Shown here one piece after another: positions 13,913-56,963 of a DNA stretch of 64,000 nucleotides. Every line of letters starts with the position of its first letter. Position 1 is the stretch's first letter. The notes below the pieces were generated by a model. The model worked only from the letters and a program-made list of their open reading frames with translations, was not told the origin of the DNA and searched no databases. The stretch is from positions 321 through 64,320 of IMG/VR virus record IMGVR_UViG_3300028591_002825. One strand, 5' to 3'. This DNA comes from a virus (taxonomy: Duplodnaviria; Caudoviricetes). The position numbers and the translations under genes are program-made.

Positions 13913-14327
13913 CTGGATACAACCCCCTAAACAACACCTTTCGACCAAGTGAGTCTTTCACATCTTGTAAATACATTTTTATGGTATTGTCAAGCTGTGT
14001 TTTAAGCACTCGCATTGCCATGTTACCAGTTATAACGTTATATGTTGAAGATACACCATCATTAGACTGGTGAGCCATTAAGCCGGCTTTGACGTTTCCA
14101 TCTTCGTCAACTGCATCAACCATAAGCACTTTCTGTTGTTTGTCTAATAGCTCTATGAGTTTATACATACAACGCTTTACTGCTTCTGGATACGATGCTT
14201 CATTTTTAAGTCTACCGAATGTCCACCAGTCTATTTGAGCCCGTGCTTCAAACTCTAACTGTTCAAAGGCGGTTTCTTCTAAATCTACCCCGCCCATTTC
14301 AATATATTCGTCATAAGTGAGATACAT
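13905..14327 (-). CDS. Head-tail connector (adaptor)
   Basis: MYLTYDEY..MGG..F..LE..AR..ID..TFGRL motif; follows capsid gene. Confidence 0.75.
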   Translation of the reverse strand: MYLTYDEYIEMGGVDLEETAFEQLEFEARAQIDWWTFGRLKNEASYPEAVKRCMYKLIELLDKQQKVLMVDAVDEDGNVKAGLMAHQSNDGVSSTYNVITGNMAMRVLKTQLDNTIKMYLQDVKDSLGRKVLFRGLYPGE

Positions 14328-14352
14328 TAGAAGTCACCGCCTTTGTTAAAAA

Positions 14353-15587: not shown

Positions 15588-16244
15588 TTAGAAATTAATT
15601 ACTGCATCAGGATGCTCATTTTTCATTTGCATCAACTGTGTTAACGTAGGCTTGGGTGGTGCAGAAGTACTTGTAGGCTGAATAAATGTAGGAACTGGAG
15701 CGGGTGCAGGAGCTGGAGTTTCAACTGCAAAAGCATCTGGGTCGCTCTGTGCGTAAATAGCTTTGAAATCATCTGCGCCAATCAGTTTACCATCTTCAAA
15801 TTGAAGTTTCTTGGCAATCATCTGATTCTTAAAATCGTTCTTTGCCGCTTTGCTTGTAAACTTCTGACCATTTACATATTCCGTTACAGCAAATTCATAT
15901 GCCTGCTGTCTAAGCTGTCTCTGATACTGCTTTGTCTCAGTATCATACTTCTGTTGGAGACTGGCTAAATCTTGTGACGCCTGTTTTAAAGCACTAATAT
16001 CACCAGCTTCATCAAGCGTCTGTCGTAAAGTTGCAAGGTCTTGGTCACGAGTCTGAATCGTTGAGTTCAGAGTGGTAATCTGTGTATCACGGGTAGAAAC
16101 ATCATCATCATATTTCTGCTTCGACACATATTGACCTTCCGTTAAATCAACGAATTTCGCTGTGCCCATTGCGGCTTGAAACTGCTCCCATGTGAGTGTT
16201 CCATTTTCAGCTTTGTCAAATATTTCCTTGACTGTCATTTTCAA
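15588..16244 (-). CDS. Capsid scaffolding protein
   Basis: Coiled coil, YVSKQKYDD motif, Pro-rich C-terminus, upstream of capsid. Confidence 0.8.
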   Translation of the reverse strand: MKMTVKEIFDKAENGTLTWEQFQAAMGTAKFVDLTEGQYVSKQKYDDDVSTRDTQITTLNSTIQTRDQDLATLRQTLDEAGDISALKQASQDLASLQQKYDTETKQYQRQLRQQAYEFAVTEYVNGQKFTSKAAKNDFKNQMIAKKLQFEDGKLIGADDFKAIYAQSDPDAFAVETPAPAPAPVPTFIQPTSTSAPPKPTLTQLMQMKNEHPDAVINF

Positions 16245-16437
16245 TTCTCCTTATACATTCTTTTATATCTGTTACTTGTATATCCGCATTACAGTTTGCG
16301 GAGAATGTGCGTTCTTTAAACGTCTTTACGCCAGACAAGTTCTCATTAATCTATGGAGAGTGCATGGGAGTACTGTATGCACTCTCCACAAACCAAGGAG
16401 AAAATATGAAAACCAGGTACCCCTCGTACCTAACTTC

Positions 16438-39744: not shown

Positions 39745-40740
39745 TTACAAATCTACATTATCCGATACATAGTATCCTGTCATCTTATAGTCCTTGACAA
39801 ATTTTCTTACCTTTGTAACTAACTTTGCGTCTCCTGTATATTCAAGTAAAAATGTATCCATTCCATGTACTTTTACTCTGCACATATACTCTTTATACCA
39901 GTTACTCTGCTTTGAATCTTGATTACCGAACTGACCTTTACCTTCATAACTCTTTATCTGGGTTATTACTTCTTCTTGTGTAACACCGTCAATAAATGTA
40001 CTAGCATCAATCTCTTCTTTATTTGCACCTTCAAGTTTAATGATTGTATCTATTCCTAAACTCTTCACACCGCACATTCTGGCATAAGCATTACTAAAAT
40101 CAGAAAACGCTCCGACTTGTACTTTATATAATGTATGCTTTTCATCTCGTTCGGTCTTAATGATTGCATCAAGATTATTCTTTTTAAGGACTTTAACAAG
40201 CTCCTCTGCGTTTTCATACAAAAGAAATGCTCCGCACTGAACTTTATACACCCCTAAATGTGATTCTCCGTCCATCTTATCACTAAGAAACTTTGAACCA
40301 CCATTCATCATTACATATCCGCCCAAACCTTTAATTCTGCGAATGGTGGATACAACAGCATTATATGTAGCAGAGCTTTCATAGTATTCGTATACATCTA
40401 TATTATCGCACCAGTAACCGTCACAACCAAGATTTTTTATTTCTTTAGCACGATTTACCAAAAAGTCTCTAACTTTTGTTCTACGCAAATCAAGGAATTT
40501 TTCATCTGGCCAGTCATCAAGAGTTTTCAATGTATACGGTATTAATTTTGTATAATATTTTCTATAAGTCTCAACTGCGCCAACATTTAAATAACCTAAT
40601 ACTGTGTAGCCCTTCTCTTTCAGAGCTTTTATCTCGTCTTTGGTAAAATCTTCTGGTTCAATAACTAAAATACATGGATTTGATACTTTCTTTAGTCTTT
40701 TCGCCTTATCACTTGACGTTAGGAAGACTTTATAATTCAC
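39745..40740 (-). CDS. GH114-like (endo-alpha-1,4-polygalactosaminidase-like) hydrolase with an internal SPOR domain
   Basis: GYLNVGAVE.YR, W.DEKFLD, G.DG.W.DN.D motifs; YKVQCGAF/YKVQVGAF SPOR repeats inserted before GVTQEE. Confidence 0.7.
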   Translation of the reverse strand: MNYKVFLTSSDKAKRLKKVSNPCILVIEPEDFTKDEIKALKEKGYTVLGYLNVGAVETYRKYYTKLIPYTLKTLDDWPDEKFLDLRRTKVRDFLVNRAKEIKNLGCDGYWCDNIDVYEYYESSATYNAVVSTIRRIKGLGGYVMMNGGSKFLSDKMDGESHLGVYKVQCGAFLLYENAEELVKVLKKNNLDAIIKTERDEKHTLYKVQVGAFSDFSNAYARMCGVKSLGIDTIIKLEGANKEEIDASTFIDGVTQEEVITQIKSYEGKGQFGNQDSKQSNWYKEYMCRVKVHGMDTFLLEYTGDAKLVTKVRKFVKDYKMTGYYVSDNVDL

Positions 40741-41861
40741 TTAGTAAACTCCTTTCTGAATTTTGTGTTTTTAGAGCAGGTTACAATCATTTTATTACCG
40801 ATACAATCTATATAAATATCGCCATCTTCGTGATTTCTCATTACAATCGCACCAAACTTTTCTAATCTTTTACGAGTAGTCTCTCTACCAGAACCTTCTT
40901 TATGATGATAATTAGAAAATGCTACTTTCGGAGAAATAGCTTTTGCAATCGCTTCATTACAGGCATTTGCATCACCGTGCCACTGAATCTTGAAAATGTC
41001 AGCTTTCAGATTTTTAACAGCTTTAATAAGAGCATTGTTACCAGCGTTCTGTAAATCGCCAGCGGTGTGATAAATCCATGTACCATCAATCGTAAATCTG
41101 GTAACTATAGATTCATTATTAACAAAATGATGGCTGTCATGCTCAGATACAGCAGAAGCCGGCATTTGATAGATGCACTCACACACTATACTACCAACTG
41201 TAAAACTACTACCGGCTTTCATGTATGTATATGAAGCGCCATACTTCTTAGCTTTTGTTGCTTGATTCCTAATAGCATTGCCATAACTTCTCTGATACTT
41301 ATCAAGTTGTGTACAATCAGGTAAATACAGTGCTTTTACCTTGAAGTTTTTAAATACATCAGTTAACGCACCATAATGGTCACCATGAGCATGACTAATA
41401 ACTACAGCGTCAATTGTAGTGATACCTGCCTTTTTTAGCTTCTTTACTGTAGTAGATGCGGATGTAGCGGTATCAATAAGAACTACATGCTCTATCGTTT
41501 TATTGTCAGCTCCGTACTCTATAATAGCTGTTGCATCGCCGTATAAACTTTCATTTTCATCCATGAAGTTTATAGCCCAAATTCGAGTTCTATGATTTTC
41601 AACATACTCCTCTTTTTTATCCTCTGATTCGGGTTCAGTAGAAACAGCTTTAATTACTACATTAAATCCTGCTTTTCGCAATTTATTCACCATAGTAACA
41701 GCGTTACCATACTGACTAAACGCTCCGCATTGGACTTTGTAGATTATACCTTCTCGTACTATTGTTGTGCGTATACCGAGTTTAGCAATTACTTTCGCCG
41801 CTTGCTTTTCTGCATTTCGCTTTATTGCATATGCACCAACTTGAACTTTATATAATACCAT
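40737..41861 (-). CDS. SPOR + metallo-beta-lactamase-fold hydrolase (ComEC/Pce-like)
   Basis: N-terminal YKVQVGAY/YKVQCGAF; SHAHGDHYG, NNES, GD, HG/HH MBL motifs. Confidence 0.8.
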   Translation of the reverse strand: MVLYKVQVGAYAIKRNAEKQAAKVIAKLGIRTTIVREGIIYKVQCGAFSQYGNAVTMVNKLRKAGFNVVIKAVSTEPESEDKKEEYVENHRTRIWAINFMDENESLYGDATAIIEYGADNKTIEHVVLIDTATSASTTVKKLKKAGITTIDAVVISHAHGDHYGALTDVFKNFKVKALYLPDCTQLDKYQRSYGNAIRNQATKAKKYGASYTYMKAGSSFTVGSIVCECIYQMPASAVSEHDSHHFVNNESIVTRFTIDGTWIYHTAGDLQNAGNNALIKAVKNLKADIFKIQWHGDANACNEAIAKAISPKVAFSNYHHKEGSGRETTRKRLEKFGAIVMRNHEDGDIYIDCIGNKMIVTCSKNTKFRKEFTK

Positions 41862-41872
41862 ATTACCCCCAA

Positions 41873-42235
41873 TTAAAATAAACGTTTTTTACCAGATTTT
41901 TTAGGTTGCGTATTCTTTATTATAACGTTTTTTCTGGAAGTAATCAATGTTTTAGCTTTTGCAATAACCCAAGATTCTGTTATAGGTAAAAATGCTCCTG
42001 TACTTGCATCCCAATCTTTGAAATATTCATACAATGTAACTTGCTTAGAAATTTCTGGATACTGGTTCTGCAAATCTCTTAGCTCTTTCGCCCACGTATC
42101 CCACTGTTTATCTGATATAGAATTTTGATTTAGATGATAATAAATACAGGAGTGCACCAGCATTTGATACCGTCTTTGCTGTATCTTTTCTGCTATTTGC
42201 AACTCCTGTCCTGTAAATAATTCATATGTTTTCAT
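41873..42235 (-). CDS. Stand-alone NAD-dependent DNA ligase domain Ia-like protein
   Basis: HS.IYY......ISD.QWD....EL..LQ..YP resembles LigA Ia; no adenylation domain follows. Confidence 0.6.
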   Translation of the reverse strand: MKTYELFTGQELQIAEKIQQRRYQMLVHSCIYYHLNQNSISDKQWDTWAKELRDLQNQYPEISKQVTLYEYFKDWDASTGAFLPITESWVIAKAKTLITSRKNVIIKNTQPKKSGKKRLF

Positions 42236-42237
42236 AG

Positions 42238-42365
42238 CGCCGGGGGTGGGATTTGAACCCACATGTCTGCGTATACTTGTTCAGATTGGCCATGTTTGAA
42301 CCCCATGGAACAGAACTGACACAGATTACAAAGTCTGCCGCTCTAACCTATTGAGCTACCCCGGC
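42238..42365 (-). tRNA. Atypical tRNA-Thr-like gene (8-nt anticodon loop CUUUGUAA, ~57-nt variable-region insertion)
   Basis: Perfect acceptor GCCGGGG/CCCCGGC, D arm GCTC/GAGC, T arm GTGGG-TTCAAAT-CCCAC. Confidence 0.55.
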
Positions 42366-42443
42366 GATAATATATAGCGCAAACATAGGAATTGTTGTCA
42401 ACTGTTCCTTTTTTATAAGAGAAGGAGAGTGTTTGCGCTATAA

Positions 42444-42516
42444 CAGCCCCTACTGGAATCGAACCAGTGAGTGCAGGAATCAAAATCCTGTGCCGTAGCC
42501 GCTTGGCGAAGGGGCC
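42444..42516 (-). tRNA. tRNA-Gln(UUG)
   Basis: Full cloverleaf; CAGGA-TTTTGAT-TCCTG anticodon arm. Confidence 0.9.
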
Positions 42517-42606
42517 ATGTTGTGTTGTGACCCCGCAATGACGAAAGTCACAACACATTGCGAAAGGATAAAATAAAATGGCAAACTACCGGACAAAAGT
42601 AGTTGC

Positions 42607-42678
42607 GAGGGAACGGTGAGACTTGAACTCACATCTCTGGTTTTGGAGACCAGTGTTTTACCATTAAACTATGAACCT
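42607..42678 (-). tRNA. tRNA-Trp(CCA)-like with mispaired acceptor stem (possible pseudo-tRNA)
   Basis: D, anticodon (CTGGT-CTCCAAA-ACCAG) and T arms intact; AGGTTCA does not pair with CGTTCCC. Confidence 0.55.
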
Positions 42679-42776
42679 ATGGTCGGTTTAAAGTAAACCG
42701 ATAACTGCACATCGGGAATAATTGGCCTGTCATTTTTGTCGCTGTGTTCAGATGACCGTGTACTTTAACCACCCTA

Positions 42777-42799
42777 CTAACCAATTGAGCTATCTGACA
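42777..42799 (-). pseudogene. 5' tRNA fragment
   Basis: TGTCAGA-TAGCTCAATTGGTTAG, then non-tRNA structured sequence. Confidence 0.45.
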
Positions 42800-42833
42800 C
42801 TGGGTTACCCACATTTGCTCTTAACCCTATCAA

Positions 42834-42906
42834 TAGAGACTCTGGGACTCGAACCCAGGACCAACTGTGTATAAGACAGGTACTCTACCAACTGAGTTAA
42901 GTCTCT
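42834..42906 (-). tRNA. tRNA-Ile(UAU)
   Basis: AGAGACT/AGTCTCT acceptor; anticodon loop CTTATAC; T arm CTGGG-TTCGAGT-CCCAG. Confidence 0.85.
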
Positions 42907-43026
42907 ATGAGTGGGGACGCATAGGAACCGTTTAGGGCAATCCCCACTGTTGATGTTCTTCTAAGGACAACTTCAACAAAAACCTTCACAGCATATTAGT
43001 GTCGCCTATAGACTAAATACTGTGAG

Positions 43027-43110
43027 TGCTACCTGTGGGACTTGAACCCACACTCTTGTCTCAGAATCGGGGCTTAAATCCGACGTGTCTGCCAATTTCA
43101 CCAAGGTAGC
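43027..43110 (-). tRNA. tRNA-Leu(UAA)
   Basis: GCTACCT/AGGTAGC acceptor; loop TTTAAGC; long variable arm. Confidence 0.88.
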
Positions 43111-43347
43111 AAGTGCGGCTGTTTTGTAGAGGGCCATTTAACTGATATTACTCTTTCCGGAAATAATGACTATCAGCACCGCTTTTCGTTAAAATACACA
43201 AATTCGATTAGATTTATATAAAAACGTTTATTTCTAAGGCGTAGACGTTCCTACGCCCCTATAAATGAACTTATTATACCATCTATTCATATTTTCTCCT
43301 TGAGCGATTTTTTATTTTAACTTTTCATGCTCTGTGAAAAGTATCTG

Positions 43348-49573: not shown

Positions 49574-50365
49574 TTATCCATCCTTTTTACATGATTCTCT
49601 GTACCCGCAGTACGTACATGATTTACGAGTTACATTTTCTGGTTTCGGTGGTGTAATCTGTCTCTCAACATATCCATCACACTCATGTATATATGTTTCA
49701 AGACTCTGCCGCATTTCATCTGACACATTAAACATAAATGCCTTCATGTCCAATATGTCTCTGCTGATATATACAAACAAAACTTGGTCAATACCGAGCG
49801 CAAGCGAATATGCTATGCCTTGATTATAATGACTTGGGTCAACATCTTTTCTATTCATAAACTTATAACTACTTTCAGTTTTAAGTTCCAGAATATAGTA
49901 TCTACCCTTATATCTAATAATACCGTCACACATGAATGACATATTTAGCTCTTTATGATAGAGCTTTGTCTCCATGCCACTCTTTGACTTAATTTCAAGA
50001 TAATCAAGTCCACGACTTTTTACGAACTCTGCAACATCAATATATTCACAATCAATTCCGTTATCTTTCATCTGCTCTACTGCTGTCTGAACCCTAACAT
50101 GAATGTCAGTACCACTATTGCAAATGCCAACAAGCGTATAATTTGAATGTGATTCATCAGGTTGCACTCCCATTATCTGATAATAGCTTGCACGAATACA
50201 GTTCATACCAGACGGCTTATAAGTCTTACTTGGAATCCCGCTGTCTTTATCAGCAGTAAGCTCTATTGACCGTTTTAGATTCTGTAAAAAATCTTGCTCT
50301 ACTGGTACTTTTTCTTTCGTACTTTCTATGAGCCGAATAACATTGCGCAAACTATTTCGTCCCAC
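49574..50365 (-). CDS. Cas4/RecB-like PD-(D/E)XK exonuclease with Fe-S Cys motifs
   Basis: PSGMNC, G.D.H, CDG, ELKT, Q...Y, CTYCGY...C. Confidence 0.8.
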   Translation of the reverse strand: MGRNSLRNVIRLIESTKEKVPVEQDFLQNLKRSIELTADKDSGIPSKTYKPSGMNCIRASYYQIMGVQPDESHSNYTLVGICNSGTDIHVRVQTAVEQMKDNGIDCEYIDVAEFVKSRGLDYLEIKSKSGMETKLYHKELNMSFMCDGIIRYKGRYYILELKTESSYKFMNRKDVDPSHYNQGIAYSLALGIDQVLFVYISRDILDMKAFMFNVSDEMRQSLETYIHECDGYVERQITPPKPENVTRKSCTYCGYRESCKKDG

Positions 50366-50885
50366 TATGCTTACCTTCTTTCCGTGCTTGTTTAATCTTT
50401 TGAGATATTAACAACTTTGTTTCTTCTGAATGTGTGCGACCATACATAGGATTTTTAGTCCCAGTACGCATTGCACTCATTTTCTTTCTGGTCTCAACTG
50501 ATGCGTGTGTGCCCAAACGACTTTTTCGTATTTTATCAATAGCACTACCATAATTAGTATTATACTTAATAGTACACCACTCTAAATTATCTACACAATC
50601 ATTTCGCTTATTTTCATCTTTATGATTAACTATTGGTAAATTCTCTGGATTTGGAATAAAAGCCTGCGCCACGAGCCTACTACACTTAAACTGTTTGTTT
50701 TTACCATTTCGATAAAGCATAACACTGTTATAATCACAAACATTTCTGGGTTTTAATATACGTTCAACACAAGTATATTTTTTTGCACTTGTACCACACA
50801 CCCTCGCCAAAGATTTAACTCTACCTAAATTACTAATTTGATAGAATCCCTCATATCCAATAATATCTTTCCAAATCTCCTGCAT
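50352..50885 (-). CDS. NUMOD4-HNH homing endonuclease with NUMOD3-like tail
   Basis: EIWKDI.GYEG.YQISNLGRVKS; VNHKDENK.N..VDNLEW; HS.ET. Confidence 0.88.
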   Translation of the reverse strand: MQEIWKDIIGYEGFYQISNLGRVKSLARVCGTSAKKYTCVERILKPRNVCDYNSVMLYRNGKNKQFKCSRLVAQAFIPNPENLPIVNHKDENKRNDCVDNLEWCTIKYNTNYGSAIDKIRKSRLGTHASVETRKKMSAMRTGTKNPMYGRTHSEETKLLISQKIKQARKEGKHSGTK

Positions 50886-50964
50886 TATAATACACCTCCA
50901 CATGTGTATTATAGCATAGTTCTATTAACTATACAAACGTTCTTTAATGACTGTCGTGCCAACT

Positions 50965-55990: not shown

Positions 55991-56963
55991 TTTCTATAGA
56001 TTCCCCATACCACGCTTTAGTTATCTCAACATCACATTTAATCGGAATACTTAAAGCACTCTTAGCGGCTTCTGACATAAGCTGTGCGAATCTTTCAGAA
56101 CATTCTTTTACATTTTCTTCTGGACACTCTGCTATTAATTCATCATGGACAGGTATGAGAAGTCTGAACCCTAATTCTTTTAATCTCTTATCATTGCCAA
56201 CTAAAATCATTGCTAACTTCGACATATCTGCCGCACTTCCTTGGATTCTTGAATTTACGCATTGTCTTTGTGCATCTGCTATTTTAGCTCCATTATCAAC
56301 AATCCATATTCCTTCTCTATTAGCTTCTTCAAATATTTTCCGCTTCTGACTAAAATAACAGTTATTCAGTTTCTTTAAATATTTTCTTTGAAGCTCTTCT
56401 GGAACTTCTGGCTCTGACATTTCTTCTGTTAAATCAAAATCTAACAAATCATCATCAGGCGGCGCTCCATCTTTCCACTTAAACTCATATTCAGGCAGTT
56501 GCAAATCAGGAAGTCTACGTTTTCTACCCCACAACGTAGTAACGTATCCTTTTTCATAAGCCATATCCAATGAATCTTCTTCAAATTGTGGAATTGCCGG
56601 AAAACCCTTAAATACAGAATCTTTTATTGCTTGTGCTTTTTTAATAGTTGTTCCCAACTGTTCAGCAATACTTGGCACTCCTCTGCCATACAACACTCCG
56701 AGCAATATTGACTTTGCCTGTGAGCGTCTATTTTTTCCTTCGGGATTAGTTGTACCGTCTGGACGAAACTCCAAGCAGTTTTCATAAGTCGTGTTAAAGG
56801 ACAAAGCGGCGATTTCTGCATATAAATCTTTCCCTTCTTGATATGCTTTAATCATCTTCGGGTCGCCACACATCTGCGTCATTACTTTTGGTTCCTGCTG
56901 TGACTAAGAATAGTCGCTGGACATAAGTACATAACTTTTTCTTGTCCTAATCGACCGTTTCAT
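55971..56963 (-). CDS. polA: Family A DNA polymerase, C-terminal piece (motifs A, B, C), with in-frame TAG at 56904..56906
   Basis: Own RBS AAGGAGG; MKRSIRTRKSYVLMSSDYS*SQQEPK; RSQAKSILLGVLYG; QGSAAD; PVHDE. Confidence 0.8.

Follow-up and report, generated by a model that had tools for sequence, protein, structure and literature searches.

A conserved phage threonine(UGU)-type tRNA gene with an eight-base anticodon loop and a folded fifth arm

The window analysed here is a stretch of 64,000 nucleotides (nt) from the Caudoviricetes record IMGVR_UViG_3300028591_002825, and comprises nearly the whole of that 64.3-kb virus record. On its minus strand, at positions 42238-42365, it carries a 128-nt tRNA gene of the Thr(UGU) type, in which the anticodon loop has one base too many and the variable region holds an additional base-paired arm. 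Judging from its conservation, we consider this to be a genuine phage tRNA gene of the threonine (UGU) type that is maintained by selection. No description of this design was returned by full-text literature and catalogue searches on insertions in phage tRNAs, phage tRNAs with introns and naturally occurring 8-nt anticodon loops.

An initial annotation, made from the sequence alone, had proposed a tRNA-Thr-like RNA with intact acceptor, D and T arms, its strand unstated, together with an 8-nt anticodon loop and an insertion of about 57 nt. These three arms are intact, as is the anticodon arm, and direct reading of the minus strand (tRNA nucleotide i corresponding to window position 42366-i) gave the 8-nt loop CUUUGUAA and a variable region of 58 nt, which replaces the usual variable loop of 4-5 nt. 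The acceptor stem, GCCGGGG/CCCCGGC, is a perfect helix of 7 bp, the D arm, GCUC-AAUAGGUUA-GAGC, has a 4-bp stem and a GG-containing loop, the discriminator base is G, and CCA is not encoded. The Rfam tRNA model RF00005 matched the gene over its full length (model positions 1-71 of 71) with 54.5 bits against a threshold of 29 (E ~6e-9), and in its alignment the anticodon loop had a 4-for-3 excess, with ~55 bases inserted in the variable region. ARAGORN, a check which the initial annotation had suggested, made no call at this position, and detection came from the Rfam model instead. The family covariance model R1, built from the relatives described below, gave 153.8 bits on the window gene. A permissive Rfam scan of 42100-43300 (E up to 1) matched only a tRNA over the element, with no other RNA family or ribozyme, and neither a promoter nor a terminator was found inside the element on its own strand.

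Relatives were gathered by pattern scans of viral, metagenome and genome collections, by locating loci via the downstream protein, with the covariance model built here, and by direct reading. We obtained 15 further distinct relatives, every one of them on a phage or metagenome contig, and the exact sequence of the window gene was present in three other assemblies (L058, L266 and L267), making four assemblies in all. When one genome each of ~185,000 prokaryote species was searched with the anticodon-arm pattern, no cellular homologue was found. According to their bodies, the sequences belong to the window type (window, L002, L024), the L061 type (L061, L088, L265, L270, L273), the L033 type (L033, L263, L269, L271) or the L274 type (L274, L276, L091, L094), the last with arms of 85-102 nt, while L029 and L089 are more distant relatives.

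In an alignment of eleven sequences, all 341 pair cells of the cloverleaf and of two helices in the extra arm, P1 and P2, were standard pairs, and ten pairs were changed on both sides, with the acceptor, anticodon and T stems each including such pairs. Only 34-50% of the cells paired in a control in which the register was slid. The eleven-sequence alignment was fitted to the model and therefore leans towards structure; an unfitted alignment of five sequences gave the same covariations. The initial annotation had held that the preserved stems argue against simple decay, and this view is strengthened here, as the stems covary, the 8-nt loop recurs, and the stem pairs beside the loop change in a compensated way. 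Conservation among relatives, which it had named as a further check, was likewise found, the extra loop base and the insert both recurring in other assemblies. Because of the recurrence of the 8-nt loop and the presence of the exact sequence in three other assemblies, the sequence of the tRNA gene is neither an error nor a product of decay.

Eleven distinct sequences, spread over four body types, have the 8-nt loop, namely the window and L033, L088, L273, L061, L271, L263, L274, L276, L091 and L269, and its form is always N-N-U-NNN-A-A (Table 1). A standard anticodon loop has seven bases and this one has eight, yet the U directly 5′ of the anticodon is kept. Since the first two loop bases vary (CU, CG, AG) and U-NNN-A-A is fixed, the extra base is placed 5′ of U33 and not beside the anticodon. 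L273 and L265 are identical apart from one loop U, and the loop thus toggles between 7 and 8 bases among near-identical phages, through two or more distinct events, one involving a U and another a G. This pattern indicates that the 8-nt loop is under selection and is not an error. The anticodons carried on the same body are UGU, UAU (L263, L269), CUU (L002), GUU with A33 (L029), UCU with A33 (L094) and UUU (L089). All of them read A-starting codons, U36-A37-A38 is kept except in L089, and the discriminator is G, U or A.

For the extra arm, RNAalifold on five sequences gave a consensus consisting of the cloverleaf and two insert helices, P1 (UCUGU/GCAGA) and P2 (GUUCA/UGAAC), of which P2 closes a 13-nt tip loop and is separated from P1 by an 8x8 internal loop. 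Two of the five P1 pairs change on both sides and 100% of its cells pair, and P2 contains two covarying pairs (G-C to A-U and C-G; U-A to C-G). Eight sequences from two body types share an unchanged tip loop AACAUGGCCAAUC, although three pairs of their T stems differ; the L033 type still has AUGGCCA, and L089 has UGGCCA. A search for a pairing partner of the tip loop elsewhere in the phage gave no second match.

The variable region starts with GUCA and ends in a U directly 5′ of the T stem, opposite A15 as in the Levitt pair, and L029, which has G15 with C48, provides one covariation event of the 15-48 pair. The arm thus leaves the body between the core GUC(A) and U48, which is the variable-arm site of class II tRNAs. 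It resembles a class II arm in being base-paired between positions 45 and 48, with covariation in both of its helices. In identity and length it does not belong to that class, its anticodon being UGU and its variable region 58 nt, as against Leu, Ser, Tyr and Sec tRNAs with arms of ~10-25 nt that begin immediately 3′ of position 45. The variable site is the only place at which a long arm is tolerated in natural class II tRNAs, and retention of the arm in the present tRNA is favoured because it stands at this site with the flanking core nucleotides kept.

Alternative folds of the insert were also considered. The initial annotation had drawn a hairpin CCAUG-GGGUUCAAA-CAUGG; this string is present, but as a folded unit it pairs in 74.5% of cells with no covariation, being disrupted in the L061 type and missing from the L033 type, so that it fails in two of three body types. 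A single-sequence Vienna fold, in which the 3′ strand of the anticodon stem pairs with the 3′ end of the insert, paired in 88% of cells, again with no covariation, and was also broken where the anticodon stem itself covaries. A second anticodon arm serving synthetase recognition was rejected, as the 13-nt tip loop offers no NGU in an anticodon-loop context.

The stretch that had been perceived as T-loop-like is CAUGGGGUUCAAA, which partly copies the end of the variable loop and the 5′ half of the T arm of the same tRNA. Here GGGUUCAAA is an exact 9-nt direct repeat of the real T arm (42252-42260), and CAUG precedes both copies, the arm reading CAUG-GGGUUCAAA and the real variable-loop/T-arm junction CAU-GUGGGUUCAAA. 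The hairpin of this stretch with 42290-42294 is unconserved, and the earlier impression was thus right for the sequence and wrong for the fold. P1, in turn, is built of the two 5-mers of the anticodon stem with their strands swapped. From the 9-nt T-arm repeat and the 5-mers shared by P1 and the anticodon stem, we infer that the probable origin of the arm is a partial duplication of the 3′ half of the tRNA itself. The insert showed no supported homology to the spacers between the tRNA genes, the matches being 7-9-mers only (E 0.14-2), with dozens of equal ones across the window.

In the window and L061 types, three self-complementary hexamers are arranged symmetrically around the tip of the arm at intervals of 16 nt. 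The outer two, which make up the facing strands of the internal loop, are unable to pair with each other, and their palindromy is kept via paired substitutions. The arms of L089 and L029 are palindrome-rich as well, those of the L274 type are not. Per-sequence shuffles gave p ~0.05-0.07 for the hexamers, and their repeated compensated change is a stronger argument than these p values. An explanation as restriction-type sites was rejected, since the counts of TGGCCA, GTATAC and CCATGG in the rest of the window are close to expectation or slightly below it. The hexamers would be explained if two copies of the RNA paired in trans.

Table 1. Features of the Thr(UGU)-type tRNA gene, its neighbours and its relatives (window positions unless another contig is named)
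Feature	Position	Strand	Remarks
Thr(UGU)-type tRNA gene	42238-42365	minus	last of five-gene cluster
Anticodon arm GCAGA-CUUUGUAA-UCUGU	42321..42338	minus	one stem pair covaries, A-U to G-C
8-nt anticodon loop CUUUGUAA	42326-42333	minus	anticodon UGU at 42328-42330
58-nt variable region	42263..42320	minus	5′ linker GUCAGU, extra arm, 3′ linker CAU
P1 5′ strand UCUGU	42310..42314	minus	tRNA nt 52-56; RNAalifold consensus
P1 3′ strand GCAGA	42266..42270	minus	tRNA nt 96-100; RNAalifold consensus
P2 5′ strand GUUCA	42297..42301	minus	tRNA nt 65-69
P2 3′ strand UGAAC	42279..42283	minus	tRNA nt 83-87
13-nt tip loop AACAUGGCCAAUC	42284..42296	minus	contains self-complementary UGGCCA
Hexamer CCAUGG	42303..42308	minus	5′ strand of 8x8 internal loop; CCGCGG in L061 type, GGUGCACC in L033 type; always a palindrome
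Hexamer GUAUAC	42271..42276	minus	3′ strand of internal loop; GUUAAC in L061 type, UUAUAA in L033 type; paired changes
T-loop-like stretch CAUGGGGUUCAAA	42295..42307	minus	partial copy of own variable-loop end and T-arm 5′ half
T arm GUGGG-UUCAAAU-CCCAC	42246..42262	minus	3/5 pairs covary
Hexamers, window type			CCAUGG, UGGCCA (tip), GUAUAC
Hexamers, L061 type			CCGCGG, UGGCCA (tip), GUUAAC
Hexamers, L033 type			GGUGCACC, UGGCCA (tip), UUAUAA; 18 nt apart
8-nt loop CUUUGUAA			window, L033, L088, L273
8-nt loop CGUUGUAA			L061
8-nt loop AGUUGUAA			L271, L274, L276, L091 (L091 5′-truncated)
8-nt loop AGUUAUAA			L263, L269
7-nt loop CUUGUAA			L024, L265, L270
7-nt loop CUCUUAA			L002
tRNA with 26/27 insertion	L002:9329-9444	minus	
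tRNA with 26/27 insertion	L090:2709-2834	plus	
tRNA with 26/27 insertion	L094:2063-2181	plus	
tRNA with 26/27 insertion	L275:34-157	plus	
tRNA with 26/27 insertion	L089:2502-2619	plus	
tRNA with 26/27 insertion	L092:2805-2921	plus	
tRNA with D-loop insertion	L002:12551-12639	minus	~19 nt, conserved, AAGUCGAUUUAAGCAUGUA
tRNA with D-loop insertion	L275 ~250-330	plus	~19 nt, conserved, AAGUCGAUUUAAGCAUGUA
tRNA with insertion inside anticodon stem	L100:2183-2299	plus	stem encloses ~50 nt with perfect T-arm copy GCUGG-UUCGAAU-CCAGC
tRNA Leu-UAA	43027-43110	minus	
tRNA Ile-UAU	42834-42906	minus	
Trp-CCA-like tRNA	42608-42678	minus	Rfam 54.4 bits; missed by ARAGORN
tRNA Gln-UUG	42444-42516	minus	
Downstream gene, stand-alone NAD-binding Nlig-Ia domain	41873..42235	minus	Pfam PF22745, 6.6e-29; outside the RNA

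The explanation that we favour, tentatively, is a working decoder of ACA codons that retains its arm and has been shaped by host enzymes targeting tRNAs. In 42 phage genes, ACA is the main threonine codon, accounting for 428 of 874 Thr codons (49%), and the other tRNAs of the cluster likewise read A-ending codons that are heavily used by the phage; the cluster and the ACA usage therefore fit a decoding role. According to this explanation, the arm would stay in the mature RNA, and the tRNA would be charged by ThrRS, whose identity elements G1-C72, C2-G71, G35 and U36 are present. It would then read ACA in the zero frame and slip by +1 only occasionally, if at all. An 8-nt loop is compatible with ordinary decoding because two tRNAs with such a loop read triplets. 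SufJ, a Salmonella tRNA-Thr3 (GGU) with an extra C31.5 and the loop CUUGGUAA, is a +1 frameshift suppressor that decodes the zero frame with unchanged A-site affinity (PMC4238358), and yeast mitochondrial tRNA-Thr1, which has an 8-nt loop, reads triplet codons (PMC3113583). The connection of 8-nt loops with +1 suppressors, pointed out in the initial annotation, proved to be close, as CUUUGUAA equals CUUGGUAA except at position 34.

The part played by host enzymes in this explanation is drawn from known defence systems. AriB of the PARIS system cuts tRNA-Lys(UUU), Thr(UGU) and Asn(GUU) at 40/41 beside U36-A-A-U-C, and phage T5 answers PARIS with variant tRNAs (PMC12409363). Phage tRNAs have been proposed to escape anticodon nucleases via loop changes (PMC10264068), and other defence systems are reported to cut the variable loop or to amputate the anticodon arm. 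The Thr(UGU) gene, together with the Lys and Asn versions of the same body, coincides with the target set of AriB. Two features, rapid change in the 5′ half of the loop and the placing of a bulky arm at the hinge that lies above the anticodon stem, suggest that host enzymes acting on A-starting-codon tRNAs have exerted pressure. Both the arm and the 5′ half of the loop, which is unusual and changes quickly from one near-identical phage to another, would be adaptations preventing recognition by host enzymes that cut or modify such tRNAs during infection.

Several observations weigh against this explanation. The AriB motif UAAUC is retained and not mutated, with U or C in place of A at position 41 beside U36-A-A-U-C, and AriB resistance is not indicated. 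Six unpaired bases precede the arm, unlike in class II arms, and its 58 nt are more than twice the length of the longest class II arm described. In addition, the insertions at 26/27 and inside the anticodon loop in tRNAs of related phages are hard to square with decoding by a tRNA that retains such an arm, and hint at a removal mechanism. The mature size, charging and decoding of the tRNA are all inferred.

It is conceivable, although we think it unlikely, that the gene specifies a tRNA look-alike with no role in decoding. Its tRNA shape would bind host enzymes while the 8-nt loop and the giant arm would bar it from translation, so that it could serve as a decoy or sponge for a nuclease or modifier, or the arm could be a handle for a partner, possibly a second copy bound via the hexamers. 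Normal elongator tRNAs almost never show an extra base, or A33 as in L029 and L094, and the retained UAAUC would suit a decoy substrate of an AriB-like enzyme. The higher conservation of the tip loop than of the T arm, the palindromy of three evenly spaced hexamers through paired substitutions, and the variable discriminator point in the same direction. However, the gene has preserved its anticodon together with the pairs for ThrRS identity, this anticodon matches the commonest Thr codon of the phage within a cluster that as a whole fits codon supply, and versions with a 7-nt loop exist in near-identical genes.

We are more doubtful that the insert is excised in the manner of an intron, the halves being rejoined by host or phage enzymes into a ~75-nt tRNA and P1 presenting the junctions. 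Insertions of 40-60 nt in several tRNAs of related phages, at the D loop, at 26/27, in the anticodon loop and in the variable region, resemble the scatter of archaeal introns and would agree with excision, as would the wholesale replacement of the arm sequence between sub-lineages with the flanks GUC...U kept. The 26/27 insertions are ~42-55 nt long, consist of a hairpin followed by (A/U)UACAGCAA, and occur in tRNA-Thr(GGU) (three cases) and in other tRNAs; this site adjoins the variable-loop site in three dimensions. On the other hand, a bacterial host is indicated by the SPOR-domain envelope enzymes, RecA, RecU, the beta clamp and the portal protein like those of Bacillota phages. An archaeal-type bulge-helix-bulge cannot be drawn at the junctions, where inspection of the consensus fold showed a P1 of 5-6 bp with single strands of 6 nt and 3 nt outside and the 8x8 loop inside. 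No group I intron or other ribozyme was matched in Rfam, and whereas group I introns are usually >200 nt and located in the anticodon loop, the insert is far below that size and lies in the variable region. Among the ~40 window proteins scanned, there was no RNA ligase or splicing endonuclease, and no insert-free allele was found. Moreover, the insertion site is structurally permissive, and simple excision would have no need of a conserved tip loop far from the junctions.

An improbable further reading is a natural SufJ-type tRNA that dimerises, its giant arm pairing with a second copy via the three hexamers (both strands of the internal loop and the tip). The resulting twofold-symmetric dimer or multimer would trap or evade dimeric host tRNA nucleases, or tune frame maintenance at ACA. 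If true, a dimerising tRNA would be a kind of molecule that has not been described.

A dedicated +1 frameshift decoder, reading ACA-N quadruplets for programmed recoding of a phage gene, appears very unlikely. It would fit the SufJ loop, here with U34 for G34, and the conservation of the 8-nt form. Nevertheless, such a decoder would put at risk the 271 in-frame sites in the 42 genes (137 ACAA and 134 ACAG), and the 7-nt alleles in otherwise identical phage genes do not agree with it. A screen of overlapping frame 0 and frame +1 open frames with ACA in the overlap gave only ordinary gene overlaps with their own starts, no split gene requiring a +1 shift at ACA was found, and the one unusual coding site observed, the in-frame UAG of polA, does not contain ACA. 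The quadruplet ACAA decoder that had been proposed initially is thus unlikely in an efficient form, because ACA is the main Thr codon and is followed by A or G at so many in-frame sites; the extra base also lies 5′ of U33. Finally, that the gene is a decaying pseudogene or an assembly artefact is hardly credible in spite of its being missed by ARAGORN and of the damaged acceptor stem in the neighbouring Trp-type tRNA, given an identical sequence in four assemblies, 100% intact pair cells with 10 covarying pairs in 11 relatives, and compensated change in the stems adjoining the odd loop.

The window encodes proteins typical of a tailed phage of bacteria, including the tape measure, major head and portal proteins, the large terminase and an amidase endolysin. 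Its replication and recombination genes comprise RecA, a beta clamp, a DnaG-type primase and a split family A polymerase, along with RecU and a RuvC-like resolvase. The portal protein is closest to those of phages of Clostridioides, Streptococcus, Bacillus and Listeria, and the host of this siphovirus, a rumen or gut phage, is therefore most likely among the Bacillota.

The tRNA gene belongs to a cluster of five co-directional minus-strand tRNA genes (Table 1), which runs in the same direction as the neighbouring genes and is adjoined by two SPOR-domain envelope enzymes. In the Trp(CCA)-type gene, four non-pairs were observed in the acceptor stem, the relatives having two U-U mismatches there or none (L089). 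The inter-tRNA spacers at 42366-42443 and 42517-42607 (minus strand) contain long inverted repeats, e.g. UAUAGCGCAAAC...GUUUGCGCUAUA and GUGUUGUGAC...GUCACAACAC, which are probably processing hairpins. Downstream, the ATG of the Nlig-Ia gene starts 2 nt past the 3′ end of the tRNA, and this junction is identical in relatives. The distance of 2 nt is kept whichever tRNA precedes (window 42233-42238; L090, L092, L263-L273), leaving no space for a ribosome-binding site, and 3′ processing of the tRNA would yield an almost leaderless mRNA.

Further observations were made elsewhere in the window and in a related phage. A metallo-beta-lactamase-fold protein with a SPOR domain is encoded at 40737-41861 (minus), and Pfam matches of its homologues include a weak one to the anti-Pycsar nuclease Apyc1. 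An HNH homing endonuclease with NUMOD3 and NUMOD4 motifs lies amid the replication genes (50352-50903, minus), and a GP20-a RNA motif (16243-16340, minus; 61.5 bits) immediately downstream of the portal gene. On L002, a related 100-kb phage contig, a HEARO (IscB-type guide) RNA was found at 14095-14337 (minus) with 139 bits. The in-frame UAG of the C-terminal piece of the split family A polymerase is located at 56904-56906 (minus; 56901-56909) within motif A, ...SSDYS-UAG-SQQEP..., with UCU before and UCA after it. Over the whole window, several palindromic hexamers are strongly avoided (observed/expected): GATATC 0/~20, ATCGAT 0/9, AAGCTT 2/23 and CTGCAG 1/14. Most GATC- or CTAG-containing hexamers are near zero too, in expectation as well. 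The avoidance of hexamers points to restriction pressure.

Eight-base anticodon loops are the textbook feature of laboratory frameshift suppressors, with a yeast mitochondrial tRNA as the confirmed natural precedent. Here, a phage lineage maintains such a loop by selection and switches between 7 and 8 bases in genes that are otherwise identical. It thereby offers a natural system for studying the costs and benefits of the loop, and for asking whether hosts attack this side of it. The arm, which reaches 85-102 nt in the L274 type, would show that the body of a tRNA can bear additions far beyond those of class II, and its place is the hinge, at which several recently discovered defence nucleases cleave. 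As standard tRNA finders miss such genes, inventories of phage tRNAs and analyses of codon supply are incomplete.

Compared with known systems, the gene shares with the class II tRNAs of bacteria (Leu, Ser, Tyr, Sec) and with allo-tRNAs a paired arm between positions 45 and 48 and a preserved 15-48 pair. It differs from them in that the arm is 58 nt long (85-102 nt in the L274 type), follows a 6-nt linker, and is carried by tRNAs with Thr, Lys, Asn, Ile and Arg anticodons. Nuclease-resistant phage tRNAs, such as those of T5 for Lys, Thr and Asn against AriB and the anticodon-loop variants against VapC, PrrC and colicins, are similar in being phage copies for A-starting codons with an unusual anticodon arm (PMC12409363, PMC10264068, PMC11464382). 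The known resistant tRNAs carry point substitutions at the cleavage site, whereas here UAAUC is kept and the changes are an extra loop base and a whole arm.

With SufJ, the gene has in common a threonine tRNA body, an 8-nt loop enlarged by one base on its 5′ side (CUU-UGU-AA here, CUU-GGU-AA in SufJ), and a C...A pair able to close the loop. SufJ is a cellular gene altered by a suppressor mutation in the laboratory, while the present gene is a natural conserved phage gene with U34 and a 58-nt arm, and the extra bases vary in the phage family (CU, CG, AG). Yeast mitochondrial tRNA-Thr1 is likewise a natural, selected Thr tRNA with an 8-nt loop, threonine charging and triplet reading being properties of Thr1; it differs in being mitochondrial and derived from tRNA-His, in its UAG anticodon, which serves a CUN-to-Thr codon reassignment, and in having no extra arm.

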